A stretch of DNA of 54,059 nucleotides from a virus (Duplodnaviria > Caudoviricetes): IMG/VR virus record IMGVR_UViG_3300042292_001176, positions 1 through 54,059 of that record. One strand, given 5' to 3'. The notes under the pieces were generated by a model that saw nothing but the letters and a program-made list of their open reading frames with translations, did not search any database and was not told the DNA's origin. This document shows, piece after piece, positions 520 through 52,064 of the stretch. A program made the translations under genes and the position numbers. Position 1 is the stretch's first letter. Each line of letters starts with the position of its first letter.

Positions 520-538
520 CAGTGGGGGGGGGGATCGG

Positions 539-931
539 TCAGAAGTGGTCGGCGGCCAGGTCGGGCGGCGGCGGGGCGTACTTGAACCCGTCGTCGACCC
601 AGTTGGTGTCGGCGGGGACACCGTCGAACGGATCGAGTCCGAGTGCCGAGTCCGACTCCTTCACCACGGGTTCGGTCGCCACGTTGTGGGTGGTGACCGC
701 CTTCAGGGTCTCGATCTCGAACACGACCACGGCGACCTTGCTGCCAGCTGGTTGGACGGGGTGGTCCTTGGCCAACAGTTCGGCGATGCGGTTGGCGTCG
801 CTCCACCATCGGGCGAAGGCGATGGGGGTGATGAGCTGCGTCACCCGCATCAGGCGGAACGGGTTCTCCGCCGAGAAGGTGCTGCTCGTGGTCTCGACGA
901 CCGAGGCGATCATGTAGTTCATTTCCGTCAT
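539..931 (-). CDS. hypothetical early protein
   Basis: ATG at 931 preceded by AGGAG; phage-like codon usage. Confidence 0.7.
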   Translation of the reverse strand: MTEMNYMIASVVETTSSTFSAENPFRLMRVTQLITPIAFARWWSDANRIAELLAKDHPVQPAGSKVAVVVFEIETLKAVTTHNVATEPVVKESDSALGLDPFDGVPADTNWVDDGFKYAPPPPDLAADHF

Positions 932-1016
932 GTTGTCTCCTGAGTTCGTGCCGCACCACGATGGTGGGTTGGGTGGGTGGTGACGGGGTGCGGTTCCGTC
1001 ACCGTCTGGAGGTGAC

Positions 1017-1053
1017 AAAAAAAGGGACACGGCTCCGTAGAACCGTGTCCCTT
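1017..1053 (-). terminator. intrinsic terminator
   Basis: AAGGGACACGG / CCGTGTCCCTT stem followed by a T7 run. Confidence 0.8.
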
Positions 1054-1058
1054 GTGGG

Positions 1059-1322
1059 TCACTTCTTCAGGTCGGCGAGCGCCTTCGCCACTGCTGCCGC
1101 CACGATGGCGGACAGGTCGGCGGTCATGTCGCCCTTGGGCGCCGACTTGCTGTTGCGGTCGACGATGGCGAAGGCACGACCGTCGCCCGTCAACTCCTTG
1201 GCGACCTCGCTGGGCAGCTGCTCGGCGGCGAAGCCCTCAGGCATCACCAGGATGGCGCAGATGCGGCTGCCGCTCTTGGTGCGGCGGGTCGTCTCAACGG
1301 TCTTGATCGTGAACTGGTCCAT
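1059..1322 (-). CDS. hypothetical early protein
   Basis: ATG at 1322 with GGAGAG RBS; ends just before the terminator. Confidence 0.7.
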   Translation of the reverse strand: MDQFTIKTVETTRRTKSGSRICAILVMPEGFAAEQLPSEVAKELTGDGRAFAIVDRNSKSAPKGDMTADLSAIVAAAVAKALADLKK

Positions 1323-1574
1323 GTGCGTACTCTCCAATTTCTTAGCCGTCCCTATCCCAGGGGAACTCCCCCTGACGACAGGACTCCCTCACCCCATGCA
1401 GCAACGCGACCCCCGCCAAACCGCGGCTTTCCCGCGGCTTCGACCCGCACTACCCACGCTGTAAGCCGCCATACGCACCCGTACAGACACCGAACAGACC
1501 CCCCCAAGCCCCCGCGCGGGCGTGTCACTCGACGGGGGAAAGACCATTTTTGTCTGGCAATTTGTGGTCAAATC

Positions 1575-1781
1575 CCCCCACTGACAGGTCCAAGCCAAGT
1601 GGACTGACAGGTTCCCGAAACCGCCCCGGGAACCCGATCCCGCGCCACGAGCTCCAAACGGCCCTTTCTCTCTCTTCTTCCTCCTACTGACAAGACTGAC
1701 AGATATAGAGAGAGAGATAGGGGTAAGAGATATATAGAGAGATAGTTGTGGCCGAAAGCTGTCAGTCCGGTTTCCTGTCAG
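1575..1781. repeat. iteron-like repeat cluster, putative replication origin or genome-end region
   Basis: ACTGACA(G) at 1580, 1603, 1686 and 1695, inverted CTGTCAG at 1759 and 1775, flanking an AG/AT-rich tract (1701-1745); non-coding, directly downstream of the helicase gene. Confidence 0.6.
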
Positions 1782-3205
1782 CCCAGATCGTCCTCTTGGT
1801 CCTTCTTCAGCGAAAGTCCCCCCAACGCCCGCGTACCTTCGGCACCTTTCCTGATCCTGCTGAGATCCCAGCTGCTCTCCGCCACAATTTTCATCATCAG
1901 CTGGTTGTCAGCCACGTGCATCTTCACGTTATTGGCCCTGCACCAGTCCTTCCACTCCCGCCGCACCAAATCATTTGCGACCGCCCCCTCCTTGTTCCGG
2001 ACGAACCGGGCCTCCAGGAAGTAATCGAACGGGTTGTTCGCCAGGTGATAGTCCTTGACCACCCGCATCCCGCCATCAGTGGGGGTGAACTTCTCTCCGT
2101 CCGGAGCCGCCTCCAGCTTGATCGCCCCCCGGAGGGCCCAGTACGCGATCCCCGCCAGCTCACCCTTCAGCACGTCCATCAGGTTGTGCTGCTCCTTGCC
2201 CTCGAAGCTCCGGTCGAACGGCAGCACCAGCATCTTCCCGCTCAGACCACGGCCCTTGTTCGGCAGCTGAGGGATCTCGTTCGACTGGACCCACGGCGCC
2301 GCGTTCACGACCACGTTCCGCATCTGCCGCTTGTACTTCGCATTGATCGAGATCGGGTCCCTTCCGAGCACGTTCTTCAGGACCCGCACCGCCACCTCGC
2401 CCTCCCGGGAATCGAGTTCACTGACCTCCGAGATGCACAACACCCTCGCGAACTCCAGCCCATCCAGCCCGAAGTTCCCCGCGATCTCGTCCAAGCTCGT
2501 GCCCACGAACCCGGTCCCGCCCACCAACCACCGCATCACCGTGCTGATCGTTCCCTTGCCAGCCCTGATCTTCCCGTGAAACAGCATCCACTTCGCGTAC
2601 CTTCGATGACTCATCATCGAGTAGCCCATCCACCGCTGCAGCAGCTCTTTCCAGAGCGTATCTCCGCCGCTCCACTCCTCTACGCACTTTGTCCACCGCG
2701 GACACTCCACAAACGGATCGAGATCCACGTCCACGACGCACGGATCGAACCACTCCGGCGTCCGGGGCACACACACCAGAGCCCCCGTCTCCGCACTCGC
2801 CTTCACGTCCACGATCACGTCCCGGAACGACACGGAACAGTGGGGGTCGCTCAACCGGTCCCGGTAATCCGGGCACAGCCACTGCGGAACCTCCGCCCCC
2901 GCGACCCGGCACAAGGCCTGCATCGCCCTCACAATCCCGTTCACCTTGAACTCCGTCGGCCCGTACCGCTCCACCACGAGCCCGTTCGGGTCGTCGCTCA
3001 CGTGCAGATCCTCGGTCCAGCGCCAGACCGCGTCCTCTAGCCACTGCTGGTCCCGCTGCACCCACTTGCCGCCGTACCACTCGAACAGCCGGCCCTGCAC
3101 TTCCTTCAGCCCCATGCCGTCCTCGAAGCACACCTTGAGCATCGCTCTCGCGACCTTCATTGGTTCCGTCGTTCTCAACGGGTTTTGTTGTGTACCCAGT
3201 GTCAT
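1778..3205 (-). CDS. D5/P4-family SF3 helicase (no obvious primase domain)
   Basis: D5_N-like WYGGKW, Walker A GKIRAGKGT, Walker B-like ISE, ISINAKYK, motif C SNEIP. Confidence 0.85.
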   Translation of the reverse strand: MTLGTQQNPLRTTEPMKVARAMLKVCFEDGMGLKEVQGRLFEWYGGKWVQRDQQWLEDAVWRWTEDLHVSDDPNGLVVERYGPTEFKVNGIVRAMQALCRVAGAEVPQWLCPDYRDRLSDPHCSVSFRDVIVDVKASAETGALVCVPRTPEWFDPCVVDVDLDPFVECPRWTKCVEEWSGGDTLWKELLQRWMGYSMMSHRRYAKWMLFHGKIRAGKGTISTVMRWLVGGTGFVGTSLDEIAGNFGLDGLEFARVLCISEVSELDSREGEVAVRVLKNVLGRDPISINAKYKRQMRNVVVNAAPWVQSNEIPQLPNKGRGLSGKMLVLPFDRSFEGKEQHNLMDVLKGELAGIAYWALRGAIKLEAAPDGEKFTPTDGGMRVVKDYHLANNPFDYFLEARFVRNKEGAVANDLVRREWKDWCRANNVKMHVADNQLMMKIVAESSWDLSRIRKGAEGTRALGGLSLKKDQEDDLG

Positions 3206-3232
3206 CTGATTATCCTTCCAGCAGGAGATACC

Positions 3233-5545
3233 ATGGCCCAGCCGCTTCGCAGCATGAACCCTTCCACTCCCTTTGGTCGCGAGAAGAACGCTCTTCTTCA
3301 GACCGACCTCCGGGATCCGAACGCCTTCCTGGGCCAGTTGATCGCCCGGAACGCCGCTGTTTCCGCGCCGGCAGCCCCGAAGCCCAAGAAGGCCGAGCCC
3401 CAGCAGCAGGCACAGCCTGCCACGCCACCTGCGACTCCTACTTCTCCGACTCCGCAGCCTCCCCAGTCGCGCCCGACCCCTCAGCTCGCCACGTCCTTCG
3501 ACGCTCAGCGCAAGGCTGCCCGCGACGCATACGACGCCGAACTGGCCGGCTTCTCGCAGCGTTCACAACAAGGCAACCAAGTCACCCCGCTCGAGCAGAA
3601 GCGCGCACTGGAGCGCTACAACAACCAGCTCGGCCGGATCAATGCCATCGAAAACAAGGGGATCAGGAAGAAGCGCGGCGAACAGCTGCGGAGCGAACGA
3701 CTTGCACGTGAGAACTACGCCGACGAACGAGCTGGTGCGATCTTAGACGAATCGACAAAGCGCTTGACTTCGTTGTTCGATTCTACACCAAAGCCTCCGG
3801 CTGTCAACATCCCGGGCCCCGCAGATCGCGCCGCGATGGCCGAACAGATGGCCGCGAACGACGCACAGCGCGCAGCCGCCGACCGTCTTCCGACTCCCAC
3901 CACGCCAGCTCCTACCCAGCCTAGCTGGCTGGACACCGCCATCTTGCGTACGATCGACCTGCTTCAGGCGGGTATGGCTCGTACCCCCACTGCTCAGCTC
4001 TCCGCTGTCGCCGCCCCAGCCGCAGCACCCCAGACCAGTGGGGGTGGCATGCCTGAACCGCCCCAGCGCTACGGTCTGGATCCCGGCGTCAACAAGGTCA
4101 TCTCCAACCTTTACTCCGGCAACGTCGCCCCGGGCAACCTGGGCATCGACCAGCTCGGCGAACTCATGCGCGGCGCCACCCCGCAGCAGCTTGCTTCGCT
4201 TTACGACGGGCTGCAAGCGCTTCCGCCCGAGCAGCAGAAGGCTGCGCTCCAGAAGATGATCGAGCAGAACCAGCAGCTGAACGTCAATCTGGGTCAGCCT
4301 CCGAAGGTCACCCCGGAACAGGCTGCGGAGATCGACCGGCTGAATCCTCCGGCGTCGTTCTTCTCCATGGACGGCTTCAACAACCTGGCCCAGGGATTCA
4401 CCGACCTGACCCAGAACCCAGTGCTTCAGACGATCGCTGGCCCCGGCGGCCTTCTCGGTACCAGCCTGCCGGCCGACGCCATCGCCCGTGAGCGAGCCAT
4501 GGCAACCACCCCGGAACAGCTCCGCATGATCCAGGCCCGCGAGGCTCAGGCCGGGATGCAGGGCGCGCTCCTCGACGCCCTTGGTGCTGGCGCCGCCATG
4601 CGGGGCAGTGCCGCCCCCAACATGACGGCCCCCGGCACCCGCGTCATCGACAACCCCACCCTCCGCGGCCAGACCCCGCCGACGTTCCGTGGACCTGGCG
4701 CAATGAACCCCAACGTGATGGATGTCACCCCAGGCCGTCCCGCCAAGCCTGTGACAGTGATCCCTGGAAACCCTGGCCAGGTCATGGACATGCCGGCGCC
4801 TCAGGCCATGCCGGGCGTCACGCCCCGCGATCTGCCGACAAACACCGGTGGACCCCGCCAGGGACCAATGCGCCCCATCGGCCCTGTGCAGACGGCCGAC
4901 GAAAGCTTCACGGCTCCGACCGTCAGGGTCAAGAATGTTCCGGGGGACATCAACAACCCCACGGCCCAGCGCCGCACTGAGCAAGGCGGTCGTGTTCCGG
5001 CGTCTCCCACCGGAAGAGAGCAGGGCCCAGGCACTGCCGCAGCCGAGGGCCAGATGCGTGTCCGTAGGTCAGACGCCCGTGTTCGCGAGCTCCGGGAACA
5101 GGATCGAGTCACCGACATCATCAACAACCTGATCGATCGCGGTGTTCTCCAGCCCAACCAGCCTGCCACCAGCACCCCCGAAGCCAAGCCCGCTACCGCC
5201 CCGGCTCCGGCCACCGAAACGGCTCTTGCTCAAGTTGCCAAGCCGGCAACACCGAAACCGGCAGCTGAAGCTCCGATCCCGCTCGCTGAACCCAGCGGCA
5301 CCACGGTCGGCCGCAACACGGTACAGGCCACCACGGTCAAACCACGCGCTACCCCGGCTCCTGGCCAGAAGGCCCAGTCCCGCAAGTCCGTCACCGAGGC
5401 CCTCAAGGCCTACGGAACCAAGGTCGTCGAGGATACCCGTGCACTCCTTGCCAAGGACCGCAAGGGCCAGGTCACCGACTCCGACGTTCTTGAGTACCTG
5501 CAGGGCCTGCTCCCCACCAAGGAATCCAAGGCAAACCCTCAGTAG
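3233..5545 (+). CDS. large Pro/Ala/Gln-rich protein, possibly an internal virion protein
   Basis: AGGAG RBS before ATG 3233; 770 aa low-complexity ORF at the head of the structural arm. Confidence 0.6.
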   Translation: MAQPLRSMNPSTPFGREKNALLQTDLRDPNAFLGQLIARNAAVSAPAAPKPKKAEPQQQAQPATPPATPTSPTPQPPQSRPTPQLATSFDAQRKAARDAYDAELAGFSQRSQQGNQVTPLEQKRALERYNNQLGRINAIENKGIRKKRGEQLRSERLARENYADERAGAILDESTKRLTSLFDSTPKPPAVNIPGPADRAAMAEQMAANDAQRAAADRLPTPTTPAPTQPSWLDTAILRTIDLLQAGMARTPTAQLSAVAAPAAAPQTSGGGMPEPPQRYGLDPGVNKVISNLYSGNVAPGNLGIDQLGELMRGATPQQLASLYDGLQALPPEQQKAALQKMIEQNQQLNVNLGQPPKVTPEQAAEIDRLNPPASFFSMDGFNNLAQGFTDLTQNPVLQTIAGPGGLLGTSLPADAIARERAMATTPEQLRMIQAREAQAGMQGALLDALGAGAAMRGSAAPNMTAPGTRVIDNPTLRGQTPPTFRGPGAMNPNVMDVTPGRPAKPVTVIPGNPGQVMDMPAPQAMPGVTPRDLPTNTGGPRQGPMRPIGPVQTADESFTAPTVRVKNVPGDINNPTAQRRTEQGGRVPASPTGREQGPGTAAAEGQMRVRRSDARVRELREQDRVTDIINNLIDRGVLQPNQPATSTPEAKPATAPAPATETALAQVAKPATPKPAAEAPIPLAEPSGTTVGRNTVQATTVKPRATPAPGQKAQSRKSVTEALKAYGTKVVEDTRALLAKDRKGQVTDSDVLEYLQGLLPTKESKANPQ

Positions 5546-6825: not shown

Positions 6826-7023
6826 ATGCTACCCCCACTGAATGCGAAGCCGAAGAAGCCTTCCAAGTACGCGCCCAAGAAGTGCCCTGAGTGCGGCGAG
6901 AAGCTGGACGAGGAGGGCGAGTGCGAGGAGTGCGGCTACGGTTGCGAGGAGTGCGAGGCCGAGAAGGAAGCCGCGAAGCAGATGGAGATCAAGTTGTCGA
7001 TCTTGCTTCCCGGCGGAGACTAG
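6826..7023 (+). CDS. small zinc-ribbon protein
   Basis: CPECG...CEECG plus a further CEEC. Confidence 0.6.
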   Translation: MLPPLNAKPKKPSKYAPKKCPECGEKLDEEGECEECGYGCEECEAEKEAAKQMEIKLSILLPGGD

Positions 7024-9623: not shown

Positions 9624-9954
9624 CGACCATTCGACCATCGACGAGGCCATCGAGACGATCAAGCGTCTCCGCCAGATGATCCGAAAGGTCTCGTACGTTC
9701 CCGCCATCAAGGAAGAGATCGAGAACATCAACCCGGCCGCGATGTTCATCGACGGCATGGACGACGCCATCATCGGCTACGCGATTCAGTGGGGGTCTCC
9801 CGCCCTGGTCGTGTACGACGCCGAGCGCATCATCGAGATCCTGTCGAAGGACATGGGCTACGAGGACGCCTCCGAGTTCTTCAGCTTCAACATCGAGTGC
9901 GCCTACGTCGGCCCCGGGACTCCGCTGATCCTGTACCGGCCGGAGCCCGAGTGA
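9565..9954 (+). CDS. conserved phage hypothetical protein
   Basis: DGMDDAIIG...VYD...EFFSFNIECAYVGPGTP motif typical of environmental phages; GGAGG RBS. Confidence 0.75.
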   Translation: MPVGDIEHRLEVMREYYPSDDHSTIDEAIETIKRLRQMIRKVSYVPAIKEEIENINPAAMFIDGMDDAIIGYAIQWGSPALVVYDAERIIEILSKDMGYEDASEFFSFNIECAYVGPGTPLILYRPEPE

Positions 9955-11915: not shown

Positions 11916-12372
11916 GAACACGGTCTCCCAGTCCCTGTTCGACGCGATGGCCCGCTGGTACTTCGGCGCTTCCGTCGAGAAGGAACCGCCGTTGGATCGC
12001 GGGGTGGGTCAGACCGTCACAATCTCCGATTCTTGGTTAGGGATCCTCTGCCTCTCCTACTACGGCAACGGTCCCCGGCATCCCTCCGTCCAGGTCCGCC
12101 CACTCGATTCAGTGGGGGTGGACACGCCGGCCCGTGATACCGTCGTGCAGTATGTTCCCGTCAAGGAATCCGTCCGCATGATCCCTGGTGGATATGCGGC
12201 CAAGAAGGCCCAGGTAAAACATGTCAACCGACCCGATCAAGCTGACCAAAGACCCGATGATGCTGGCTCGGATCATCGACGAGCACTGCGAACGGGAGCA
12301 GAACCGCCTGTCGTACCGCCGGGCGACGTGGCTGGTGGCCCTGTACTACATGATGGGGGCCCGTCAGTTTGA
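11869..12372 (+). CDS. hypothetical protein between terL and portal
   Basis: fills the 300 bp gap; overlaps terL by 47 nt and portal by 152 nt; weak internal repeat. Confidence 0.5.
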   Translation: MHEPHTQQPQRQTRSENTVSQSLFDAMARWYFGASVEKEPPLDRGVGQTVTISDSWLGILCLSYYGNGPRHPSVQVRPLDSVGVDTPARDTVVQYVPVKESVRMIPGGYAAKKAQVKHVNRPDQADQRPDDAGSDHRRALRTGAEPPVVPPGDVAGGPVLHDGGPSV

Positions 12373-14224
12373 TGTCTTCGATCCGGTCAGCGGCACCGTC
12401 CGCTACTCGTACCTCGACGACGAGGAGAAGATGGAGTTCCAGTCCTCGGAGCTCCTGAGCGCGGTCGACAAGATCTCCGGCCGCCTGTCTTCGCTGGACT
12501 ACAGGCCGCTGGTGCAGCGCGTCGGGTCCTCGCTGAGCTCGATCCGCCAGCGGTCGATCGCGCAGATCATGCTGGACCAGGTGGTCTCGGAGCACCAGCT
12601 CCAGCGCGTGGTCCCGCAGTTCAATCACATCTTCGCGCTCCTGGGCTCCTGCGGCATCACCGGCCACATGGTCAACCACCCCACGGTAGGCATGACCGCC
12701 GACCTTGAGGTCGTGCACCCGATGGAGTTGTTCCCGTTCCCGAGCCTGACCCAGGACTACACGAAGCAGCGCGGCCTCCTGCGCCAGCGCATGGTCTCCA
12801 TGGAGTACCTGAAGGACGTGTTCGGCCCGAAGGTGACCCGCAACAAGGACCGCCTGGAGTACTTCACGATCAAGCCGGGCGAGACCTTCGAGCAGCAGAC
12901 CGCCAACGAGTACACCATGGGTTCCAACGTGGAGTACTCCGACAGCAAGGTCGTGGGCTCGGATCCGAAGTACGACGCGATCGAGGTCGTCAAGGTCCGC
13001 GAGCTCTGGCTCAAGGGACCCCGCGACACCGTGACCCGCTACGTCGTGACGAGCGGCGAGTACGTGATCCACGACGAGGACCTGGAGGGCCGGGAGGTCT
13101 ACTGCCCGATTGGGTTCGCCAGGTTCATGGAGAACGGCACGTTCCACGGCGCCGGTGTCTTCGACCTGCTGTTCCCGCTGTGCCGCGAAGCCGAGAAGCT
13201 TCAGAAGCAGCTCTTCAAGAACGTGCACGACATCGACCGTTACGGCGTCCTCGTGCTGCCGCACGGCTCGTTCAACGCGAACACGATGCTGCGCGACGTG
13301 GGCAAGGGGCTCCGGGTGTTCCCGTGGGAACCGGATCCGATCAGCGAGGGCTTCCGTCCCTTCAACATCACGCCGTTCAACTCCGGCGACGTGCCCGGCA
13401 AGATCAGCGCATTCGCGGTCCAGCAGATCGACCGCCTCAACCCGATCCGCGATCTGATCGCGGAGAAGGGCCGCGTCGACTCCGCCACGGGCCTGCAGTT
13501 CCTGGACGAGCAGGTGAACCGCGCCATGAACACCCCCACTGCCGGTGTGCAGCAGGCGTGGGGCGATTGCTACCGGGCGGTGCTGGCCGGCACGGTGCGC
13601 GAGGTTGTGTTCAGCCCGAAGACGTTCACGGTGGACCAGCTGACCCTGGACCTCGCGGGCGTCGTGGTTGACCCCGAGACCATGGCCGTCAGCTTCGAGC
13701 AGAATCCGCTGCCGTCGCTCGGGCAGCTGTCGTTCAAGATCAAGGACATCAACCCCCGGAGCAAGGTGGCCCGCAAGCAGGAGGCCCTCCAGCTCCAGCA
13801 GCAGTTCCAGATCGACCCGGACACCTTCATGCTCTTTGCGCTGAAGGAGGGCCTGGACTTCGCGATGTGGACCGACGAGCACCAGTCGGCCTACGAGTCG
13901 GTTGTGCGGAACTGCCTGCTCCTGTACGGTGACGGCAAGAGCCCGGGGCAGGTGGTGCTGACGCCGCAGACCACGAAGCCCGAGATGCAGATCCGGGTGC
14001 TCAACTCCTTCATGGCGGGACCGACGATGGCGGTTGCATCGGCCGAGGTGCAGAACGCCTTCATCGAGTACCACAAGACGCTGATGAGCTTTATGGGCTT
14101 GGTACTTCCGAACGCCCTTCCCAATCCAGACGATATGGCTATGCTGGGGCGGCTGGATCAGCAGATGGCCCAGCTCCAGGGGATGCAGCAGCAGGCTCCT
14201 GGCCCACAGATGCAAGGGATGTAA
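12221..14224 (+). CDS. portal protein
   Basis: 667 aa after terL; KGRVDSATGLQFLDEQ (portal-type SG.A...L.E motif); Q/M-rich tail. Confidence 0.8.
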   Translation: MSTDPIKLTKDPMMLARIIDEHCEREQNRLSYRRATWLVALYYMMGARQFDVFDPVSGTVRYSYLDDEEKMEFQSSELLSAVDKISGRLSSLDYRPLVQRVGSSLSSIRQRSIAQIMLDQVVSEHQLQRVVPQFNHIFALLGSCGITGHMVNHPTVGMTADLEVVHPMELFPFPSLTQDYTKQRGLLRQRMVSMEYLKDVFGPKVTRNKDRLEYFTIKPGETFEQQTANEYTMGSNVEYSDSKVVGSDPKYDAIEVVKVRELWLKGPRDTVTRYVVTSGEYVIHDEDLEGREVYCPIGFARFMENGTFHGAGVFDLLFPLCREAEKLQKQLFKNVHDIDRYGVLVLPHGSFNANTMLRDVGKGLRVFPWEPDPISEGFRPFNITPFNSGDVPGKISAFAVQQIDRLNPIRDLIAEKGRVDSATGLQFLDEQVNRAMNTPTAGVQQAWGDCYRAVLAGTVREVVFSPKTFTVDQLTLDLAGVVVDPETMAVSFEQNPLPSLGQLSFKIKDINPRSKVARKQEALQLQQQFQIDPDTFMLFALKEGLDFAMWTDEHQSAYESVVRNCLLLYGDGKSPGQVVLTPQTTKPEMQIRVLNSFMAGPTMAVASAEVQNAFIEYHKTLMSFMGLVLPNALPNPDDMAMLGRLDQQMAQLQGMQQQAPGPQMQGM

Positions 14225-15133
14225 ATGGACCCCACGACGAAGATCACGCTCGAAGACGGAACCGAGGTCACGCTGGCGGATCTCATGCAGAACCGGAAGG
14301 ACCTGCAGGAGGCCGTCGAGATCAACGACACCCTGCAGAAGGATCTGCAGGAGGTCGGCGTCTTGTTCCAGGCGGGCATCACCCAGGACCGCCGCGAGAA
14401 CGCAATCCGCAACGTGCTCGAGAACCTGGGCTACGAAGACGAACAGATCGGCAAGTACCTGGAGGCCACCCGCCAGGCACCCACCCCGAAACCGGAACCG
14501 GAGGAAGTCGAGGAGATCGAGCTTCCCGACCTGCCGGACGAGAACGACGACATCGAAGATTCCAGTGGGGGTGAACAAGAGGACACCATGACCGCAGAAC
14601 GTGAACAGATCCTTCGGCAGGAGCTCGAGGCCCAGCGGGCTGAGCTCCACAAGATGCGGGTGCGCGAGCTCCGCGAAAACCTGAACCGCCAACTGGATAC
14701 CGCGTTGAAAAGCAATGCGGACTTCCAGAGGCTTATCGAGAGCGCCCGCAGTACTCGGGGCGACGAAGGCGTGAAGCAGGCAGAGCAGACGCTTCGAGCA
14801 CAACTCGAGCAGCGCGCTCTGGAGCGCATGCAGGCTCGTCGTGCCACTGCGGGAACCTTCGAGGACTCATGGATGTCCGAGGAGGTCGAGAAGGCAGTAG
14901 AGCCCGTCGTGGGCACATTCCGGTCGGTAATCGGCGACATCGACAAGCTCGGTCGGTCGTCGGAAACGGTCACTGGACTCGACGCGCAGGAGATTCTGCG
15001 CTCCAAGCCAATCCCCGCTCCAGAGTACAAGGCTGGGATGTCCTTGACCGACGTTGAGTCGGATGTCAAGGCATTCGCCTCGGACACCATCAAGCGGGCC
15101 TTGGCGTCGTCTCCCGGTGAATCCGCAATCTGA
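14225..15133 (+). CDS. capsid scaffolding protein
   Basis: acidic coiled-coil, DGTEVTLADL N-terminus, located between portal and capsid. Confidence 0.7.
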   Translation: MDPTTKITLEDGTEVTLADLMQNRKDLQEAVEINDTLQKDLQEVGVLFQAGITQDRRENAIRNVLENLGYEDEQIGKYLEATRQAPTPKPEPEEVEEIELPDLPDENDDIEDSSGGEQEDTMTAEREQILRQELEAQRAELHKMRVRELRENLNRQLDTALKSNADFQRLIESARSTRGDEGVKQAEQTLRAQLEQRALERMQARRATAGTFEDSWMSEEVEKAVEPVVGTFRSVIGDIDKLGRSSETVTGLDAQEILRSKPIPAPEYKAGMSLTDVESDVKAFASDTIKRALASSPGESAI

Positions 15134-38149: not shown

Positions 38150-38167
38150 GATCAGTGGGGGTGCGTG

Positions 38168-40011: not shown

Positions 40012-41435
40012 CACGTGAGGTGTTCGGGTTCGAGGCTCTCGATCATCCCGTCGAACTCGTGCGGTTCCGGTTCGCTTGGCAGTTCGCCCGCGTCCCGATG
40101 GGCGACGAGGAACTGCTGCGTCTGGACCAGCGCCGGCCAGTCCTTCGGCTCGGTCAGGTAGAACGGGCTGTAGTTCGCCAGCTTCGACCCCATCCGGATT
40201 GCGTCGATGTTCTTCAGGAAGTTGCATGGGTTCGCCTCTTGGGTTGCCAGGTTGTAGATCATGGCAACACGGGAAAGGTAGTCGATGCGCCAATCCTTGT
40301 CAAGCATCACCGACGAATGAGTGTACGAAATATTGATCGGGGGGTCGTTCACGAAATCCGGAGCCTTGTCAAGGTATTCAAGTTCACCCCGGTACCAGCG
40401 CATGCACCTGGCCATGTAGTTCGTGAGCGACGGTTCGCCCTGGTAGATCTTCTCAGGCTTCTTGCCGGTGACCTGGTGCAGCACGTTGAGGCACTCTTCC
40501 ATCGTGCCGCAGCACGGCTCCGGGCTGGGCTGGTTCTTGGTCCACTTGATCACGTACTCGCCGAACTCCTGCAGGTGGACGGGGGACCGCATGATGCGGC
40601 CGGAGACGCCGGTGCGCTTGCCGTCGGACTCCCAGTGGAAGTCGCGGTCGGACTGCCCGAACTGGATCGACGGCTTGAGAATGGCCATGTGCATCATGCC
40701 GCCGAGCTGCACGTCCTGTGCCAGGTTGTACTGCTTGTGAAGCAGACCCCGGGCAAAGAACCACTCGAGGGCGTGGAGGTAATGCATGGTCTGGAACTCC
40801 TCCTTCACCGTCGACAACCGGATCAGTGGGGGTGACGCGGTCGTCTTCGCGTCCACGATCCAGAGCTTGTTGGTCTTGCGGTTGAGCAGGAGCAGGTCGA
40901 ACTGCGCGACCTGGCGGGTCTTCGGGAACCGCTCGTCGATCCACGTGAGCCGGACCTCGGCGCCGAGCTTGACGAAGTTGTCGGAGAGGGTGTCGAGCGC
41001 GCTCTGGTTGTTGATGCAGGGCAGGTTCTCGAAGGCGTTGTACCAGGCGGAGGCGTAGGCCTGGTCGATCTGCTCGTTCTGGATCGCGTCGGCCCGGTGG
41101 GATTCGGCGATCCGCAGCTCCTTGCAGATGTTGTTGATCTCGGCAAGGCGGGCAGAGCACTGGCGCTTGAAGATCTGCCAGCGATCATCGCGGTCGTAGA
41201 GGGCGAACAGGGTGTGGAAGTAGGAGCCCCGCGACAGGGCCTCGGAGTAGGAGAGCGCGGGGATCAGGCCGAGCCGGCGGCGGATGTAGTAGCCGAAGGG
41301 ATCGGAGAGGGCGGAGCTGTAGTCGGATGAGCGGATGGAGGGAATCCGGGGCACGAGGCCTTCGGACTCGAGGTACTGCCGGGCGCTTCTGGCACGGTCA
41401 GTCGGGAGGGGGAGCGGTGTCGTTTCGGGTGGCAT
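40011..41435 (-). CDS. PD-(D/E)xK (RecB/Cas4-like) exonuclease
   Basis: RGSYFH, QFDLL, IVDAKTT, Q..HY motifs. Confidence 0.75.
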   Translation of the reverse strand: MPPETTPLPLPTDRARSARQYLESEGLVPRIPSIRSSDYSSALSDPFGYYIRRRLGLIPALSYSEALSRGSYFHTLFALYDRDDRWQIFKRQCSARLAEINNICKELRIAESHRADAIQNEQIDQAYASAWYNAFENLPCINNQSALDTLSDNFVKLGAEVRLTWIDERFPKTRQVAQFDLLLLNRKTNKLWIVDAKTTASPPLIRLSTVKEEFQTMHYLHALEWFFARGLLHKQYNLAQDVQLGGMMHMAILKPSIQFGQSDRDFHWESDGKRTGVSGRIMRSPVHLQEFGEYVIKWTKNQPSPEPCCGTMEECLNVLHQVTGKKPEKIYQGEPSLTNYMARCMRWYRGELEYLDKAPDFVNDPPINISYTHSSVMLDKDWRIDYLSRVAMIYNLATQEANPCNFLKNIDAIRMGSKLANYSPFYLTEPKDWPALVQTQQFLVAHRDAGELPSEPEPHEFDGMIESLEPEHLT

Positions 41436-41934: not shown

Positions 41935-41943
41935 CTCATCCTC

Positions 41944-42253: not shown

Positions 42254-42290
42254 GGGGAGTTCTCCGAGTACCAGTCGTCGTAACCCTGGG

Positions 42291-42491
42291 TCACTTGGCC
42301 CCCACTGCCTCGCTGCTCACGTTGTTGTCCCGGGCGAAGAACCCGATGCCAGCCACGCCAAGCGCAGCGAACACAGCCTGCAGGTTGAACACGGTCTCGG
42401 GATCGGTGTCAAGCAGGTACGAGACCTGGGTCGCGATGATGCCGATGGCGGTGAGGATTCCGACGGCGGTGGTCTTCCAGCTGCCCTTCAT
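42291..42491 (-). CDS. putative holin
   Basis: SWKTT..G N-terminus, two TM segments, F.ARD C-terminal motif. Confidence 0.6.
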   Translation of the reverse strand: MKGSWKTTAVGILTAIGIIATQVSYLLDTDPETVFNLQAVFAALGVAGIGFFARDNNVSSEAVGAK

Positions 42492-44048: not shown

Positions 44049-44057
44049 GGTTGATCC

Positions 44058-44605: not shown

Positions 44606-44636
44606 TGGGCTGTGCTCGAGATCGTCGCCTCATGAT

Positions 44637-45563: not shown

Positions 45564-46074
45564 GGGTGATGGCTCCGTTGATCAGGAGTCTTGCGACTTC
45601 TTCCCCCACTGATCTGCGCTGTTCGGGGGTGGCGGCTGGAAGGTAGAGGATCTGGATGTGGCGTTCAAGACAGATGCGGTGAAGGGCGTCGACCACCAGC
45701 CATGGGTCCACATCGAGCTGGCTTCTGGCCGTCCTGACCAGGTGGCCGATCGTCCCTTCAAGGATGAGTATCGGATGGGCGCACTCGGATCGCAGCCGGT
45801 CACAGGCCTTGACGAATCGCTCGCGACCAGTGGGGGTGAGCAGGTTCGAGAAGAGCTCGGGCAGGTGCTTCTTGCGCTCGATCAGGACCTTGGACTCGAA
45901 GCCTTCTAGGGCGTAGTCGCCGGTCTGTAATCGTTTCTTGACGACCGTAAGTGAAACGGTGCAGGACCGCTTGTCCGTAGGGACATGGGCATCGTCGAGC
46001 ATGACGATGTTGGCCGGGAAGATGAGGGGCGTCTTCTCCCGGTCGTCCTGGAGGATGGTCCAGCTGCGCTTCAA
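45526..46074 (-). CDS. ERCC4-domain nuclease (resolvase-like)
   Basis: DDREKTP, LQTGDY, LIERK, LILEG. Confidence 0.8.
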   Translation of the reverse strand: MKRSWTILQDDREKTPLIFPANIVMLDDAHVPTDKRSCTVSLTVVKKRLQTGDYALEGFESKVLIERKKHLPELFSNLLTPTGRERFVKACDRLRSECAHPILILEGTIGHLVRTARSQLDVDPWLVVDALHRICLERHIQILYLPAATPEQRRSVGEEVARLLINGAITHAEQPDSDIPCS

Positions 46075-46361: not shown

Positions 46362-46364
46362 GGT

Positions 46365-48428
46365 TCAGGTGTAGATGGTGCGTTCGTAGCGGATCGGAAC
46401 AGATCGACCCAGCAGCTGGCACAGTCTAGCCCAATATCCCTGGGTTGTCACGTAGGTGAAGGCGTCACGGAACAGGGTGTCGAGGCGGTCAACAGCGGTG
46501 TCGCTACGGCAATCGAAGTAGATGGCGTCGTACACGTTGAGGAACATGAGGATGTCAGGGGATGGTGCGTTGATGGAGGGGAGGGTGCGGTGCAGCTGGT
46601 GCTGGATGCGGAGCAGGACGTTGCCGGCCGTGCATTGGATGGGCATGTTCACGATCTCGGAGATGTCGTAGGCATCGCCACCCATGAAGCGACGGGACTG
46701 CCCGATGAGGGGGAGCGCCACGTACCCACGGGCACGGGTCTCCCGGATCAGGGTCTCTTGCCAGTGCCACAGGCCAGGGCGCGAGGCGGAGCGGGTCTTC
46801 ACGATGTTCTCGCAGATGGACATGGGCACGACGACGCCGGTCATCTTGAAGACTTGGGTCTGGAGGGTGGGCGCGCCGGCACGGAAGAGGTCGCCGAAGT
46901 TGGCACCCTTGGCGGCCTGGCGGTACACCTTCTTGAAGTCAGGGTTCTCCTTGATGTCGGGCCCGAAGACCTGGACGGCACGGCTGGTGTGCAGGTCGAG
47001 GGGTGGGTCGGCACGGAAGGCAGCGAGGAGGTCGGCGTCACCGGATAAGAGGCCGGCCACGACCATCTCGATCTGAGACAGGTCGTACCCGACGATGTGG
47101 CCCCGGGTCCAACGGCTCCGGTAGAACTTCTTGATCTCGTCGGGGTCGGTCTGATGCCGGAAGTTCTTGCAGGTGATGCGGCCCTGCAGGGTACCACCCT
47201 CGCCGCCGGCCCCGTCCTTCGAGGCAGTGGGGGTGACGAACCACGTGGGATAGGAGACCCCCACTGGACTGTTGGGCCGGGCCACGAGGCGGGAGGATTT
47301 GTTGGTGGGGTCCATCCGCTGGTGACGGAGCAGCGGGTAGAGGTAGGAGGAGAGGAGCTTCTGGTGGGAGGAGTAGGTGCCGAGCAGGTTGAGCTGGTCC
47401 GCGAGATCAGTGGGGGGCTGGAAGCTGAGGAAGAGCTGGCGGTTCACGTCGTTGACCGCGATCTCCTTCTTGGTTTCGGTGAGCTGGAACAGGGGGTGGG
47501 ATCGGATGGCCGGGTCACGGTTGTGCTCGATCCAGGTGCAGGCCGATTGCATCAGGGCCAGTTTGGACTTGGCACTTCCTGGCCCGGTGAGTACGAGTCC
47601 GAGGGAGGCAGCGGCATCTTCAGCATCCCGCATCCGGGACACCACGGATTGCTCGAGTTCGGATAGGCCCGCCCGGTCCATAGGCACTCCTGATTCCGAC
47701 ATGCGGACCACTGTCCAGATGGTGTCGGAGTAGTGGGTGATGCACTCGGGCGAGAGCTTGTCGGTGTCGGGGTAGTCGGTGCGGATCCGGCGGCCGAGTT
47801 CGGTGCAGGCAAGCAGGGTGTTGTGGGTGTCGGCTGCGTTGTACCGGTGGAGTTCGGGGTCACGGGCGTCGTGGTATTTCTTGTCACGGTCGAGTTGCTC
47901 CTTGGGGTAGGCGTGGGTTCCGAGGATGGGACCGAGGGCTTTGAGTGAGCGCTCGGGCCGGAGCTCGGAGTGCAGGTAGTTGAGGACCGAGAGGTCGATC
48001 AGGGTTTGGTGTTCGAGGTGGAAGCGGAGGTCGGGCTGGGATCGGAGGTACAGGAGGTCGAACTGCAGGTTCATTCCGAGGATGGTTCGGGAGTGGGCGA
48101 GCCATCGGGCGAGGTGCTTGCGGTGGGCGGGGATGTGAAGCTGGAAGACGAAGGTGGGACCGGGACGGAGGTGGGCCAGGTCACCATCACGATCGGCAAC
48201 GGTGACGGAAACGGTTTGAACCAGATCGCGGATGGGGCATCCGTCCACGTCGACGGATCGAGCGGGGTGGAAGACGGACTGGGTGGGGAGGAGTCGGCCG
48301 GCTGCGGTGAATCGGGTGATGCCATAGGTCTCGATGTCCAGGCTAATGGTGCGGGGGTCGGGGCGGCTGGATGTCGGGGTCGGTGGGGACAGGGGCGCAG
48401 CCACGGATGGTGGAGGAGAGGAGTTCAA
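46365..48428 (-). CDS. polA: DNA polymerase, family A, with 3'-5' exonuclease
   Basis: ExoI LDIET, ExoII N..FD, ExoIII YNAAD, motif A DLSQIE, motif B RQAAKGANFG, motif C VYDA. Confidence 0.9.
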   Translation of the reverse strand: MNSSPPPSVAAPLSPPTPTSSRPDPRTISLDIETYGITRFTAAGRLLPTQSVFHPARSVDVDGCPIRDLVQTVSVTVADRDGDLAHLRPGPTFVFQLHIPAHRKHLARWLAHSRTILGMNLQFDLLYLRSQPDLRFHLEHQTLIDLSVLNYLHSELRPERSLKALGPILGTHAYPKEQLDRDKKYHDARDPELHRYNAADTHNTLLACTELGRRIRTDYPDTDKLSPECITHYSDTIWTVVRMSESGVPMDRAGLSELEQSVVSRMRDAEDAAASLGLVLTGPGSAKSKLALMQSACTWIEHNRDPAIRSHPLFQLTETKKEIAVNDVNRQLFLSFQPPTDLADQLNLLGTYSSHQKLLSSYLYPLLRHQRMDPTNKSSRLVARPNSPVGVSYPTWFVTPTASKDGAGGEGGTLQGRITCKNFRHQTDPDEIKKFYRSRWTRGHIVGYDLSQIEMVVAGLLSGDADLLAAFRADPPLDLHTSRAVQVFGPDIKENPDFKKVYRQAAKGANFGDLFRAGAPTLQTQVFKMTGVVVPMSICENIVKTRSASRPGLWHWQETLIRETRARGYVALPLIGQSRRFMGGDAYDISEIVNMPIQCTAGNVLLRIQHQLHRTLPSINAPSPDILMFLNVYDAIYFDCRSDTAVDRLDTLFRDAFTYVTTQGYWARLCQLLGRSVPIRYERTIYT

Positions 48429-49631: not shown

Positions 49632-49744
49632 TTGGCACCTCCGATGACAACGCCGAGGAGGAAGAAGGCAAGGCCCCAGCCGGTGATGGCAAGGACCACG
49701 AAGGCTTCGTGACGGAAGCGGGAGACTGTGATGTCGTCGTTCAT
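49628..49744 (-). CDS. tiny membrane protein (38 aa)
   Basis: MNDDITVSRFRHEAFVVLAITGWGLAFFLLGVVIGGAK; GTGA coupling. Confidence 0.5.
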   Translation of the reverse strand: MNDDITVSRFRHEAFVVLAITGWGLAFFLLGVVIGGAK

Positions 49745-49794
49745 GGGATCAGTGGGGGTGGGAGAGGGGCGGTCGCATCGCCCCCTCGGTGCGG

Positions 49795-50349: not shown

Positions 50350-50469
50350 GGTCTATCTCAATGGGTGGTGTCACGATGCGAGGATCGTGACGAGTAGGTA
50401 GAGGATGAGGAAGATGTAGAACGTGGTTGGGTTGATGTAGCGGGTGGGGTCGGGGTCACGGTCGGACAA

Positions 50470-50829
50470 TCAAAGGTCCCTCCTTTCGTCCTGGCGTTCC
50501 TTCCACTCCTTCACGCCGTCGTCCTCGATGGGGAGGGGACGGCGGTCGGGATCGTCGTTGAGCCACTGCTCGGTGACGTAGATGAGATGGAAGTCAGCCT
50601 TGAGACGGCGAACGATGACGGCGTAGATGATGGACGGGAGCATGGACTCGAGGTCGTTGCCTTCCCGGTCGGTGATGGAGTCAACGTCGATGACGATGTC
50701 GTTGTAGAGATCGCGCTCGAAGCCGACGGTGACGAAGAGGGGGGCGGGATCGAGGAGGTACTCGCAGCGGAACACGACGTGCTCCTTGTTGGTCCAGTCC
50801 TCGATGACAAGTGGCAGGGGATCAGGCAT
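50470..50829 (-). CDS. hypothetical protein
   Basis: GGAG RBS; ATG at 50829. Confidence 0.6.
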   Translation of the reverse strand: MPDPLPLVIEDWTNKEHVVFRCEYLLDPAPLFVTVGFERDLYNDIVIDVDSITDREGNDLESMLPSIIYAVIVRRLKADFHLIYVTEQWLNDDPDRRPLPIEDDGVKEWKERQDERRDL

Positions 50830-51532
50830 TGGTGGCTCCGATGGTGAGGAGGACACGGCGCTCTGCGTCAGAGACAGCGTGTCCATGGGGCAGGTAGTTG
50901 ACGTAGTCGGTGTCGTCCCAGCAGGTGCGGCAATCGTGATCGGCACAGGAGCCACCGGATACGGTCTTGGGGCAGGTGCGAATGCCGGGCAGGGACTGGT
51001 GCATGGAGACGGTGCCGTGCCCGAGACCGGGGATCACGGGCGGTTCGTCGCCGAAGGAGAGGGCGGACGGACGGACACAGGCGTTGGGCTTGCGATGGAG
51101 CTTGCGAAGGGCGGGCCTCCAGTTGGGGAAGAGGTAGGTGCGAGTGGGGAACCAGAAGCGGGTGGCAGGGCAGCGGTCCACGATGGACTGCCACAGGTGG
51201 ATGGCGGACAGAGAGTGGAAGTCACCGCTGTCGTGGACACGGAACCAGAGGGGTGACTCCAGGTGGAGGAAGCGGACGAGCATGTCGGCGAAGGCGGTGG
51301 GCTGTGACTTGAGGAAGTCGAAGCGGGCCCACTGGGTGTCGCGGACATTGCGGAACAGGTAGTTGCCCTGCTGGGCGTAGCAGGAGGAGCAGATGGAGTT
51401 GGGTGCACGGTGCTCGGCGGGGCAGGCAGCGTGCTTGCCGGCTGGCAGGGACCACGACCAGCACGACATGGCCGATGTCCATGTGAGCAGGGCGTAGGAC
51501 TTGCCGTTGTGGTTGAAGCGGGGTGAGTTCAT
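50822..51532 (-). CDS. Gp88-family protein (radical-SAM-related Cys cluster)
   Basis: WSLPA...CP...C..CYA..G.Y, FRVHDSGDF, FWFPTR. Confidence 0.75.
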   Translation of the reverse strand: MNSPRFNHNGKSYALLTWTSAMSCWSWSLPAGKHAACPAEHRAPNSICSSCYAQQGNYLFRNVRDTQWARFDFLKSQPTAFADMLVRFLHLESPLWFRVHDSGDFHSLSAIHLWQSIVDRCPATRFWFPTRTYLFPNWRPALRKLHRKPNACVRPSALSFGDEPPVIPGLGHGTVSMHQSLPGIRTCPKTVSGGSCADHDCRTCWDDTDYVNYLPHGHAVSDAERRVLLTIGATNA

Positions 51533-51535
51533 GGG

Positions 51536-51985
51536 TTAGTCCTCGGGGTAGGTGATGACGGCGTCGATGACACGGAGCTCGCCGTTCTTGATGAGCCACT
51601 TCCACTGGGCGCCGCACTCGCCGGACCAGAAGAGTTCGGTGGTGCCCGTCATGGCGGGGGCCATGGCGTCGAAGAGTTCCTCCTCGTTGCCGGTCTTGCT
51701 GTCGTAGCAGAGGTCGACGATGGCACCGTCGTTGTCGTGCATCACGTCGAAGTCGAAGTCCTCGAGCACAGCGGAGAGGTCGTTGGACTTGAGGTGCTTC
51801 TCGAGTGCGGCCATGTCGACCCACGAGTACCACCGCTTACCGTCGTCGGGACCACCGTAACAACCGCCGCTCATGGAGTCGGTGTTGGTGAGGAACCCGG
51901 TGGTGAGGAGGTGCTGGCAGATGCGGGGGAAGTCGGACTCGGGGATGCGGATCTTGCAGGAGTTGAGAGTGACGTAGTAACCCAT
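51536..51985 (-). CDS. hypothetical phage protein
   Basis: MGY N-terminus and W.GE.G..W motif. Confidence 0.7.
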   Translation of the reverse strand: MGYYVTLNSCKIRIPESDFPRICQHLLTTGFLTNTDSMSGGCYGGPDDGKRWYSWVDMAALEKHLKSNDLSAVLEDFDFDVMHDNDGAIVDLCYDSKTGNEEELFDAMAPAMTGTTELFWSGECGAQWKWLIKNGELRVIDAVITYPED

Positions 51986-52007
51986 GTGCTGTCTCGTGAA
52001 GGGGGTG

Positions 52008-52039
52008 AGAAAGAAACCCCGCCGGTCGCATCGGCGGGG
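52008..52039 (-). terminator. intrinsic terminator
   Basis: CCCCGCCG / CGGCGGGG plus TTTCTTTCT. Confidence 0.7.
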
Positions 52040-52064
52040 AGCGAGTGATCAGTGGGGGTGCAGG

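Follow-up and report, generated by a model that had tools for sequence, protein, structure and literature searches.

The virus record IMGVR_UViG_3300042292_001176 (Duplodnaviria; Caudoviricetes) represents an uncultured lake phage. The window analysed here is the whole of that record, 54,059 bases with an estimated completeness of 100%. The subject is a short word, the 9-mer CAGTGGGGG, that is distributed over this genome on both strands, and its positions are given as window coordinates throughout. Written as YCAGTGGGGGK, the word appears to be a strand-specific recognition site, held by DNA-level selection at about 25-35 exact copies per genome. Near-identical phage sequence is present in many lake-water metagenome runs (24 were found), with a word depth of 200-300 in two of them. 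No cultured relative was found in the phage collection, in which a 10-kb DNA query and TerL remained unmatched and PolA, distant clades included, reached at most 26-30% identity.

The genome is organised in two blocks of opposite orientation. The plus-strand block (~3.2-37.5 kb) carries the structural genes, and the minus-strand replication block extends from 37.5 kb, through the record end, to ~3.2 kb. The latter also encodes UDG-like, DUF932 and GP88 proteins. The genes on which the analysis relies are the following:

3233-5545 (+), P/A/Q-rich gene at the start of the plus-strand block
9951-11915 (+), TerL
38764-39660 (-), AAA_24/Sak4-like protein
40011-41435 (-), PD-(D/E)XK nuclease
41398-41934, small sigma-region-4-like protein
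45526-46074 (-), ERCC4 nuclease
46071-46361 (-), helix-turn-helix (HTH) protein
46365-48404 (-), family A DNA polymerase (PolA)
1778-3160 (-), P4/D5-type helicase

The contig ends of two relatives (G408 and G409) overlap and a third (G002) continues across the window ends, which indicates that the map is circular or circularly permuted. The GC skew is negative at ~2-24 kb and positive beyond, with switches near 1.5 kb and near 24 kb. The switch at ~24 kb falls in the middle of the structural block, where the gene orientation is unchanged, and recurs in high-GC relatives. The gene set, built from codon statistics, comprises 63 genes and covers 92% of the window (7.8% non-coding); no tRNA gene was found in the window.

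The 9-mer CAGTGGGGG occurs 32 times in the window, 22 times on the plus strand and 10 times on the minus strand, which corresponds to one copy per 1.69 kb. The initial annotation of this DNA had listed these 32 copies and all of them are present, with a single coordinate slip (13532, to be read as 13533). Its rough expectation was about one 9-mer and fewer than 0.1 copies of the 11-mer. Dinucleotide-preserving shuffles give 1.03 copies of the 9-mer (standard deviation 0.94, largest value 4), and 0.09 copies are expected of the 11-mer CAGTGGGGGTG. The 11-mer is in fact found 20 times (16 plus, 4 minus), as had been reported, and the AT said to stand often in front of it directly precedes 12 of the 32 copies of the 9-mer (ATCAGTGGGGG, n = 12). 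With ~30 copies per 54-kb genome, the 9-mer is about thirtyfold above chance. Markov models predict 0.40 copies (order-3) or 3.99 copies (order-5) against the 32 observed, and under either model its excess far surpasses that of any other k-mer in the genome. The motif also ranks first by raw count, among the 8-mers and among the 9-mers. After the motif family, the next most over-represented 8-mer is AGATCGCG/CGCGATCT, with 14 copies against ~2.5 expected (order-3).

The edges of the motif are sharp. A C precedes every AGTGGGGG, and a G follows 32 of the 33 copies of CAGTGGGG. Beyond these edges the window shows a preference for (G)AT on the 5' side and for TG on the 3' side. The word consists of nine invariant bases and a constrained tenth, is asymmetric and G-rich, and contains GTGG. 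Variants with one mismatch are not enriched in the window (11 against 13.6 expected), and four relatives have 4-14 of them against 11-17 expected, so that near-misses are at or below expectation in all five genomes.

Most copies lie in genes: 26 of the 32 (81%) are wholly genic and six are intergenic, a 2.4-fold over-representation of intergenic copies given the 7.8% of non-coding DNA. In a codon-preserving shuffle (1000 runs, with every protein and the codon usage of each gene kept and the six intergenic copies fixed) the mean was 7.47 copies and the maximum 12, that is ~1.5 coding copies against the 26 observed. The codon-aware and Markov checks that the initial annotation had called for therefore leave the enrichment in place. 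The genic copies occupy all three codon phases, sense and antisense, and are read as SVGV/AVGV/PVGV, SGG, QWG, TPT, PPL or DPHC. They use codons that are uncommon in this genome, as had also been pointed out: outside the motifs, the share of the codon family is 4% for TCA, 4% for AGT, 8% for ACT, 8% for CCA and 17% for GGG, and all five are used within copies. Because of the excess over the codon shuffle, the use of all phases and of rare codons, and the lack of near-miss enrichment, the word is no artefact; selection acts on it as nucleic acid, and its recognition is all-or-none.

Several simpler origins were considered and set aside. Chance, base composition and coding bias are ruled out by the dinucleotide shuffles, the Markov models and the codon-preserving shuffle. 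An assembly artefact is ruled out by the recurrence of the word in more than 70 independently assembled loci and records. A by-product of GC skew was dropped since the plus-strand bias persists where the skew is negative, and a Shine-Dalgarno-like role or a promoter was dropped since the copies lie on both strands within genes. A literature search for the motif strings returned only unrelated primers and the like.

Relatives of the phage were sought by a scan of viral contigs with the 14-base form of the word, by TerL, by PolA and by metagenome searches. Among the first 121 matches listed in the 14-base scan, the contigs with multiple matches are all relatives, 67-92% identical in nucleotide sequence, and all are enriched in the 9-mer. 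The TerL loci 74-99% identical to that of the window carry the 9-mer in 40 of 40 cases (273 copies in 501,895 bases, 5.4 per 10 kb), and the same 9-mer is used over a GC content of 49% to 67% in these loci. It is also carried by 17 of 17 close PolA viral loci (4.4-9.1 per 10 kb) and by all the close metagenome relatives of at least 6 kb. Four complete genomes and one that is 84% complete hold 24-35 copies each. The look into related phages that had been proposed along with the motif thus found the word common to every close relative examined.

Conservation is also seen at individual sites. Over six long relatives, 110 site-by-relative cells could be aligned; 68 of them retain the full 9-mer, where the identity of the flanks would predict 17.5. 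Together with the codon-aware shuffles, this considerably strengthens the earlier claim that selection acts on the nucleic acid and not on the protein. The sites at 14563, 38153, 40824 and 45603 are universal, and those at 2077, 2838 and 12110 are nearly so. Many others are lineage-specific gains, placed where other genomes have unrelated sequence. Given this turnover of sites at a steady copy number, selection keeps the number and the spread of the sites and not their positions. The replication module is common across the clades and includes the helicase, the UDG, the polymerase, a PD-(D/E)XK nuclease of 410-474 amino acids (aa), AAA_24 and DUF932; ERCC4 is present only in some clades.

The copies are listed below with their strand and context; the counts of retention refer to the alignment to the six long relatives, and further records (G001-G005) are named where they apply.

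520..528 (+), intergenic, with minus-strand genes 222-413 and 539-931 on either side; no alignment to relatives
1575..1583 (-), in the 440-bp non-coding origin-like gap, abutting the first CTGACAG iteron; kept in G002
2077..2085 (+), helicase gene 1778-3160 (-), antisense, TPT; kept in 5/6
2838..2846 (+), helicase gene 1778-3160 (-), antisense, DPHC; kept in 4/6
3984..3992 (-), hypervariable P/A/Q-rich gene 3233-5545 (+), antisense; inverted pair with 4036
4036..4044 (+), P/A/Q-rich gene 3233-5545 (+), sense, SGG; pairs with 3984
6832..6840 (-), junction of genes 6567-6824 and 6826-7023 (+); kept in G002 and G407, and G005 keeps the 9-mer with C at +1
9787..9795 (+), gene 9565-9954 (+), sense, QWG; kept in 3/6, one base off in G410
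12110..12118 (+), intergenic, 111 nt upstream of gene 12221-14224 (+); kept in 4/6
13533..13541 (-), gene 12221-14224 (+), antisense, TPT; kept in 3/6
14563..14571 (+), gene 14225-15133 (+), sense, SGG; universal, 6/6
19006..19014 (-), gene 18508-19590 (+), antisense, PPL; missing at the aligned place in G002
19423..19431 (+), gene 18508-19590 (+), sense, QWG
19839..19847 (+), weakly called gene 19595-20644 (+), where the coding frame is ambiguous
20918..20926 (-), gene 20641-21408 (+), antisense, TPT; kept in G409 only
24096..24104 (+), 1229-aa CBM96/DNRLRE-domain gene 23270-26959 (+), sense, PVGV; kept in G005
26191..26199 (+), CBM96/DNRLRE-domain gene 23270-26959 (+), sense, SGG; kept in G005 and G411
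27383..27391 (+), gene 26956-28137 (+), sense, SVGV; kept in G005 and G410
28690..28698 (+), gene 28134-29780 (+), sense, SVGV; missing at the aligned place in G005
32768..32776 (-), gene 32683-33045 (+), antisense, TPT; left arm of an inverted pair, 18 bp start to start
32786..32794 (+), gene 32683-33045 (+), sense, SVGV; right arm of the inverted pair, kept in 4/6
35683..35691 (+), 1144-aa gene 34059-37493 (+), sense, AVGV; kept in G001, G002 and G408
38153..38161 (+), intergenic, just past the stop of gene 38168-38731 (-); universal, 6/6, and also in G001, G003 and G004
40824..40832 (+), PD-(D/E)XK nuclease gene 40011-41435 (-), antisense, PPL; universal, 6/6
42299..42307 (-), near the end of small gene 42291-42491 (-), sense; one base off in G004, absent in the aligned relatives
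45603..45611 (-), ERCC4 gene 45526-46074 (-), sense, SVGE; universal, 6/6, with +1 always A
45828..45836 (+), ERCC4 gene 45526-46074 (-), antisense, TPT; kept in 3/6
47225..47233 (+), polymerase gene 46365-48404 (-), antisense, TPT; head-to-head with 47258, kept in 3/6
47258..47266 (-), polymerase gene 46365-48404 (-), sense, PVGV; kept in 2/6
47408..47416 (+), polymerase gene 46365-48404 (-), antisense, PPT; kept in 2/6
49750..49758 (+), intergenic (49745-49794), a few bases upstream of a minus-strand start codon; kept in G408
52050..52058 (+), intergenic (51986-52064)

The copy at 38153 sits near the convergence of the two transcription blocks. The inverted pair at 32768/32786 is conserved in G001, G002, G407 and G410, with a spacer of variable length.

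The word is polar. Over seven genomes placed in the same orientation, 136 of 201 copies (136:65) have their G-rich strand on the plus strand, and this majority is ahead in all the 5-kb bins but one, at 15-20 kb, where the two strands are level (6:6). The 26 genic copies of the window are divided 11:5 between sense and antisense in plus-strand genes and 3:7 in minus-strand genes; the minus block reaches 5:11 when the six intergenic copies, all placed among minus-strand genes, are counted by strand. Since the plus strand holds the majority in both gene blocks, the bias follows the genome and not the transcription. It does not flip at either of the GC-skew switches. The polarity is likewise independent of gene orientation in the distant genomes G414 and G416, and in 12 of the 12 long records checked most copies lie on the strand that is sense for the TerL/structural block. 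The major strand takes 63-75% of the copies in the main clade and 69-87% of them in clade C, which leaves 25-37% (seven genomes) and 13-31% to the minor strand.

The spacing on the major strand is more even than random, with a coefficient of variation of 0.53-0.63 against 0.93 (P 0.003-0.013) in four of the five complete main-clade genomes; these genomes share sites, so the tests are not independent. Copies follow one another at intervals of ~2.4 kb on the major strand and, on the minor one, of ~5 kb. Close pairs are formed only by copies of opposite strands: within 60 bp there are 10 such pairs in seven genomes against 3.1 expected, and zero pairs on the same strand. Conserved opposite-strand pairs are 18-52 bp apart.

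The word also diversifies into dialects. In the main clade the base after the 9-mer (+1) is constrained in each genome, being T in most lineages; G407 has A or T. Three lineages that do not form sister groups on the TerL tree have G instead, with a C before the word (10 of 10, 7 of 8 and 9 of 9 copies). More distant relatives are not enriched in CAGTGGGGG and have related words at a similar density (GTGGGGGGA, AGTGGGGGA, ATCAGGGGG, GTGGGTGAG). The words outside the main clade, with the identity of the PolA to that of the window unless another query is named, are distributed as follows:

48% clade, PolA 48%: AGTGGGGGA, weaker
Lake and marine clades, PolA 36-46%: GTGGGGGGA or AGTGGGGGGA
One contig (L196/L197), PolA 44%: CGGATCAGGGGG, 5 copies in 15.6 kb
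G418, a record of the lake/marine group, PolA 44% to the clade C query L271: GTGGGGGGGA
One contig (G412), PolA 33%: GTGGGTGAG, 16 copies in 33 kb, with a 14-base consensus

In the marine group, five long records contain 18-36 copies of GTGGGGGG against 0-6 of a control word. The strand splits are 3:20, 8:18, 19:7, 5:13 and 11:25. In every one of these records the preferred strand is the antisense strand of the polymerase gene and thus the sense strand of the structural genes, and the polarity holds for genes of either orientation. The contig G412 departs from this picture: its strands are divided 8:8, and seven of its 16 copies are intergenic, several of them by gene starts (often within ~30 nt). 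The C-rich strand of the G412 word presumably resembles a DnaA box; as no other of the words has this likeness, DnaA boxes were dropped as a reading of the motif. A search for relatives of this contig (loci L221 and L222) returned only G412 itself. As a separate observation, an open reading frame (ORF) with a Cpn10 (GroES-like) domain splits the polymerase gene of L196 in two, at 1922-2254. Four features go beyond what the initial annotation had described: a polarity that is independent of transcription, an even spacing, an exactness of the all-or-none type, and dialects that differ by lineage within a wide group of uncultured phages.

All three functions put forward in that annotation (a Chi-like site, a binding site for a DNA-organising or packaging protein, a priming signal) are still live candidates. 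The word resembles both the Chi of Chi-rich phages and the nick motifs of the phage tf type, and shares the defining features of neither in full. By analogy with the former, its likeliest single function would be that of a Chi-like signal for a helicase-nuclease, and this reading is put forward tentatively. Chi sequences range in length from 5 to 8 bases. An enzyme of the RecBCD/AddAB class would enter at a free double-strand end, which could be that of a concatemer cut by terminase, of a rolling-circle tail or of injected DNA. It would move against the packaging direction and read the G-rich strand as single-stranded DNA from the 3' side. At the site, degradation would stop and the loading of a recombinase would start, so that the phage DNA would be spared and fed into recombination-dependent replication. 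The minority-strand copies may guard ends that are entered from the opposite side. The even spacing on the major strand fits the need for a site near any break. The T-to-G switch at +1 in non-sister lineages, together with the lack of a phage gene or residue that tracks it among those taken as evidence here, would be easier to explain by changes of host than by a reader borne by the phage. The rank of the word as top oligomer, its density of one per 1.69 kb, its all-or-none recognition, its polarity without regard to transcription, its turnover at 24-35 copies and the tolerance of opposite-strand pairs also support a Chi-like signal.

The comparison with Chi-rich phages is close in several respects. 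According to a published study (PMC12315714), LLS has 23 Chi sites, P1 has 50 and the Pseudomonas phage MD8 has 32; for LLS and P1 this amounts to about one per 1.9 kb. Chi is placed on the 'top, active' strand in 20 of 23 cases in LLS and 32 of 32 in MD8 (PMC12315714). The same source describes Chi-rich lambdoid phages without a Rec module, gives Chi as 8 bases in its cases and quotes known Chi sequences that contain GTGG (PMC12315714). As in these phages, the word studied here is the most frequent oligomer, is present once per 1.7-1.9 kb, and is G-rich and asymmetric; it is biased to the 'top' strand (late genes rightward), its sites come and go, and it lies within genes without regard to frame. 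On the other hand, the copies are evenly spread here, and those of the Chi-rich phages described there are clustered at one end.

Several observations weigh against a Chi-like signal. The word has 9-10 bases instead of the 8 of the Chi cases described, and its strand bias is ~68%, compared with 87-100% in the phages of that source. Unlike the lambdoid phages reported there, this phage has recombination genes of its own (AAA_24/Sak4-like, PD-(D/E)XK, ERCC4). No bacterial genome searched shows the enrichment in the word that would be expected of a Chi sequence. The counts in bacterial genomes, one of the checks suggested at the outset, covered a single phylum. A scan for TerL relatives, with one genome per species, returned a single 3.2-kb contig, in a Sericytochromatia genome; this genome has 18 copies against 31 of a control word and is not enriched. 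Among 401 Cyanobacteriota genomes (the only phylum searched) none shows 9-mer enrichment, and among 121 Cyanobacteriota genomes none has GTGGGGGGA near the density of the phages. Furthermore, the 9-mer is the same over a GC content of 49-67%, and the core GTGGGGG is kept across polymerases only 36% identical, in lake and sea. Such breadth of conservation would require a very conserved host reader and fits a reader borne by the phage more simply. The G412 word, with its 14 bases, 7 of 16 copies intergenic and an 8:8 strand division, is not Chi-like. Within the host search, one 6.1-Mb Cyanobacteriota genome (G035) holds 360 copies of GTGGGGGGA against 67 of the control; this excess lies partly in tandem arrays with 24- and 53-base spacing (contig 1, ~866,339-866,671) and is apparently unrelated to the phage.

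A reader encoded by the phage is a possible but doubtful alternative to the Chi-like signal. The phages of this family-level, uncultured lake and marine group would then possess an autonomous 'self-marking' system, in which a polar and evenly spread word with the core GTGGGGG co-evolves with its reader into the dialects CAGTGGGGGT, CCAGTGGGGGG, AGTGGGGGGA, GTGGGGGGGA and ATCAGGGGG. The reader would be a conserved protein of replication or recombination, with the 410-474 aa PD-(D/E)XK nuclease or the D5-type helicase as examples of candidates, and the mark might serve the discrimination of phage from host DNA or its processing. A phage-encoded reader was looked for among the gene families and residue columns that track the T/G dialect at +1. 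Over 5.6-20 kb, in which three G lineages could be compared, no gene family and no residue column tracks the dialect. Over 37-49 kb, with two partly G-dialect contigs, I58V and F227H in the PD-(D/E)XK nuclease and D215S in PolA do so, as do a single column in 44637-45563 and, in a small ORF of doubtful status, three more; these are no more tracking columns than chance might give. No residue of the HTH protein or of ERCC4 tracks the dialect. All 24 runs with the phage exist as assembled contigs, and the four compared over 30001-50000 show no read ends; no variant falls in any copy among the 40 of 78 variants listed. Only at 42299 and 45603 are there contig ends close to copies, and these look like strain branch points; the comparison has no bearing on nicks.

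A phage enzyme could also be a nickase that cuts one strand at each copy, for packaging, ejection, recombination or counter-defence; by analogy with Pseudomonas phage tf this is the main rival of the Chi-like signal, a rather unlikely explanation, although the likeness is considerable. The nick-associated 9-mer of tf and its relatives is a closely similar phenomenon, which the initial annotation had not named. The genome of tf has 14 nicks, all of them inside one asymmetric 9-mer, TACTRTGMC, with only three one-off variants in the genome and all sites on one strand (PMC3517423). The tf-type motif is enriched in 61 related phages of little nucleotide similarity, with 88% of the 542 copies in coding DNA (PMC11780129). 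The word of the window has a very similar anatomy, as an asymmetric 9-mer with 26 of 32 copies genic, few near-misses, and a presence in all close relatives whatever their GC content. Like the tf/Rembedalsseter motif (TACTRTGMC / WACTRTGAC, ~60 relatives) as described in those sources, it is near-invariant, clade-wide and mostly coding. The dialects follow the phage phylogeny, as expected for a co-evolving phage enzyme, and the group has conserved nucleases: every clade has the 410-474 aa PD-(D/E)XK protein, and ERCC4 occurs in part of the clades. Nevertheless, the tf-type sites are described on one strand, at 13-14 per 46 kb and concentrated on one side of the genome, whereas here the word is on both strands (13-37% of the copies on the other strand), at about twice the density of tf, and even. 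The close and conserved opposite-strand pairs (10 against 3.1 expected) would give staggered double-strand breaks if both members were nicked, which argues against nicking, and the +1 dialect is tracked by no ERCC4 or HTH residue and by only two in the PD-(D/E)XK nuclease. The function of the tf-type motif, and of the nick sites of T5 and of phiKMV-like phages, is unclear in the known cases too.

Other readings of the word are less probable. A phage-encoded protein that binds it as duplex DNA and marks the genome regularly (an HTH or sigma-like protein, a small terminase, a genome organiser or shield) is improbable. It would suit a strict and asymmetric site of 9-10 bp, which is within the reach of a monomeric DNA-binding domain, and both HTH (46071-46361) and sigma-region-4-like (41398-41934) proteins are encoded. 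The dialects fit co-evolution with a phage protein, and the 2.4-fold intergenic excess becomes stronger in G412 (7 of 16 copies) and in G414 (5 of 23). However, the orientation is unrelated to transcription and most copies lie deep in genes, in contrast to promoters and operators, an organiser gives no obvious cause for a strand polarity over the whole genome, and the +1 dialect is tracked neither by gene families or residues in 5.6-20 kb nor by the HTH protein. The stoperators of cluster A mycobacteriophages (e.g. L5) and the start-associated sequences of cluster K are asymmetric 13-bp sites, repeated 20-30 times and read by phage proteins; these are intergenic and oriented with transcription, whereas 81% of the copies are genic here and their orientation ignores transcription. 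Polar words of a further kind, the KOPS and SRS read by FtsK/SpoIIIE, are G-rich 8-mers that flip at the origin and at dif; in the present phage the orientation does not flip, and an FtsK-like gene was not detected.

A replication signal is a still less probable use of the word. The copies would then be preferred lagging-strand primer or restart sites, to which the phage replisome (a P4/D5-type helicase, a family A polymerase and a primase that escaped recognition) would respond on single-stranded template DNA. The even ~2.4 kb and ~5 kb spacing is of the order of Okazaki fragments, the uniform polarity fits rolling-circle or recombination-dependent replication, and the replication module is the part conserved in all the clades that carry the word. 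Moreover, the word contains GTGG, a known site of a primase-polymerase: that of phage NrS-1 recognises 5'-GTGG/GTGA-3' and, on the template, an 8-base site (PMC8718748). Primase sites, as described there, need 3-4 defined bases and the word has 9-10 (PMC8718748); the polarity does not flip at the GC-skew switches (~1.5 kb, ~24 kb), and no primase domain was detected in the proteins of the window. The helicase has 460-480 aa in seven main-clade genomes and matches only the C-terminal, helicase part of primase-helicase families. Finally, the word might be the passive copy of a pervasive host word, such as an uptake sequence, acquired by amelioration and functionless in the phage, which is very improbable. 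Uptake sequences of Neisseriaceae and Pasteurellaceae have 9-12 bp, about one copy per kb on both strands, a genic location, some inverted pairs and dialects, and the density of one per 1.7 kb and the inverted pairs are reminiscent of them. They are a feature of host genomes with many degenerate copies, unlike the present word, which has no near-miss enrichment and a polarity that follows the phage map. The 9-mer is also the same at 49-67% GC, all contigs with multiple matches are relatives among the first 121 matches listed, and no bacterial genome searched is enriched. The remaining probability belongs to an explanation not yet thought of.

Genome-wide polar words are rare, and the known ones (Chi, KOPS, uptake sequences, phage nick sites) each mark a basic DNA transaction. 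The present one adds conserved and graded dialects across an abundant, uncultured, family-level group of aquatic phages. A Chi-like signal, if that is its nature, would disclose which Chi word an uncultured host group uses and how this group processes DNA ends, and would provide a sequence tag for the matching of phage and host. If the word is a nick site or a self-mark, it would offer a second system, much larger and more diverse, for the fifty-year-old question of the purpose of phage nicks. A reader encoded by the phage would amount to something not yet described, either an equivalent of Chi borne by the phage or a nicking system that acts on two strands. The dialects are natural swaps of specificity, and the reader should therefore be findable by covariation with more full genomes.

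Further features of the genome lie outside the motif. The gene at 3233-5545 (+) encodes a P/A/Q-rich low-complexity protein with a weak codon bias, whose counterparts have 408-1061 aa and are unalignable as DNA. The gene at 7263-8726 (+) encodes a protein without family match, present in 16 of 16 genomes with 443-538 aa and only 25-60% identity, far more divergent than the products of the neighbouring genes. The product of the gene at 43149-44048 (-) matches, in its N-terminal part, the N-terminal domain of Mtd (major tropism determinant), and in contigs from lake metagenomes the stretch 43900-43990 is marked by several joints, by loose ends and by a skip of 33 bases. Since a reverse transcriptase could not be detected anywhere in the window, a diversity-generating retroelement is not evident at 43149-44048. 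Searches of PDB sequences with four proteins (the PD-(D/E)XK nuclease, a weakly DUF932-like one and two without family match) gave no match, and a search on DUF932 yielded no useful information.

The reading frame of the helicase (1778-3562, minus strand) is open for 119 codons upstream of the first ATG/GTG/TTG, and the similarity to relatives stops at ~3228. Beside the helicase gene, the 440-bp non-coding gap at 1338-1777 contains a GA-rich low-complexity tract adjoined by CTGACAG iterons. This 7-mer has only five copies in the genome (10.8 expected), all of them within 200 bp (1581-1781), three in direct and two in inverted orientation. At the gap the sign of the GC skew switches abruptly, and the circular G408 and G409 and the fragment G411 start or end nearby. 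From its sequence, this iteron region looks like a replication origin.

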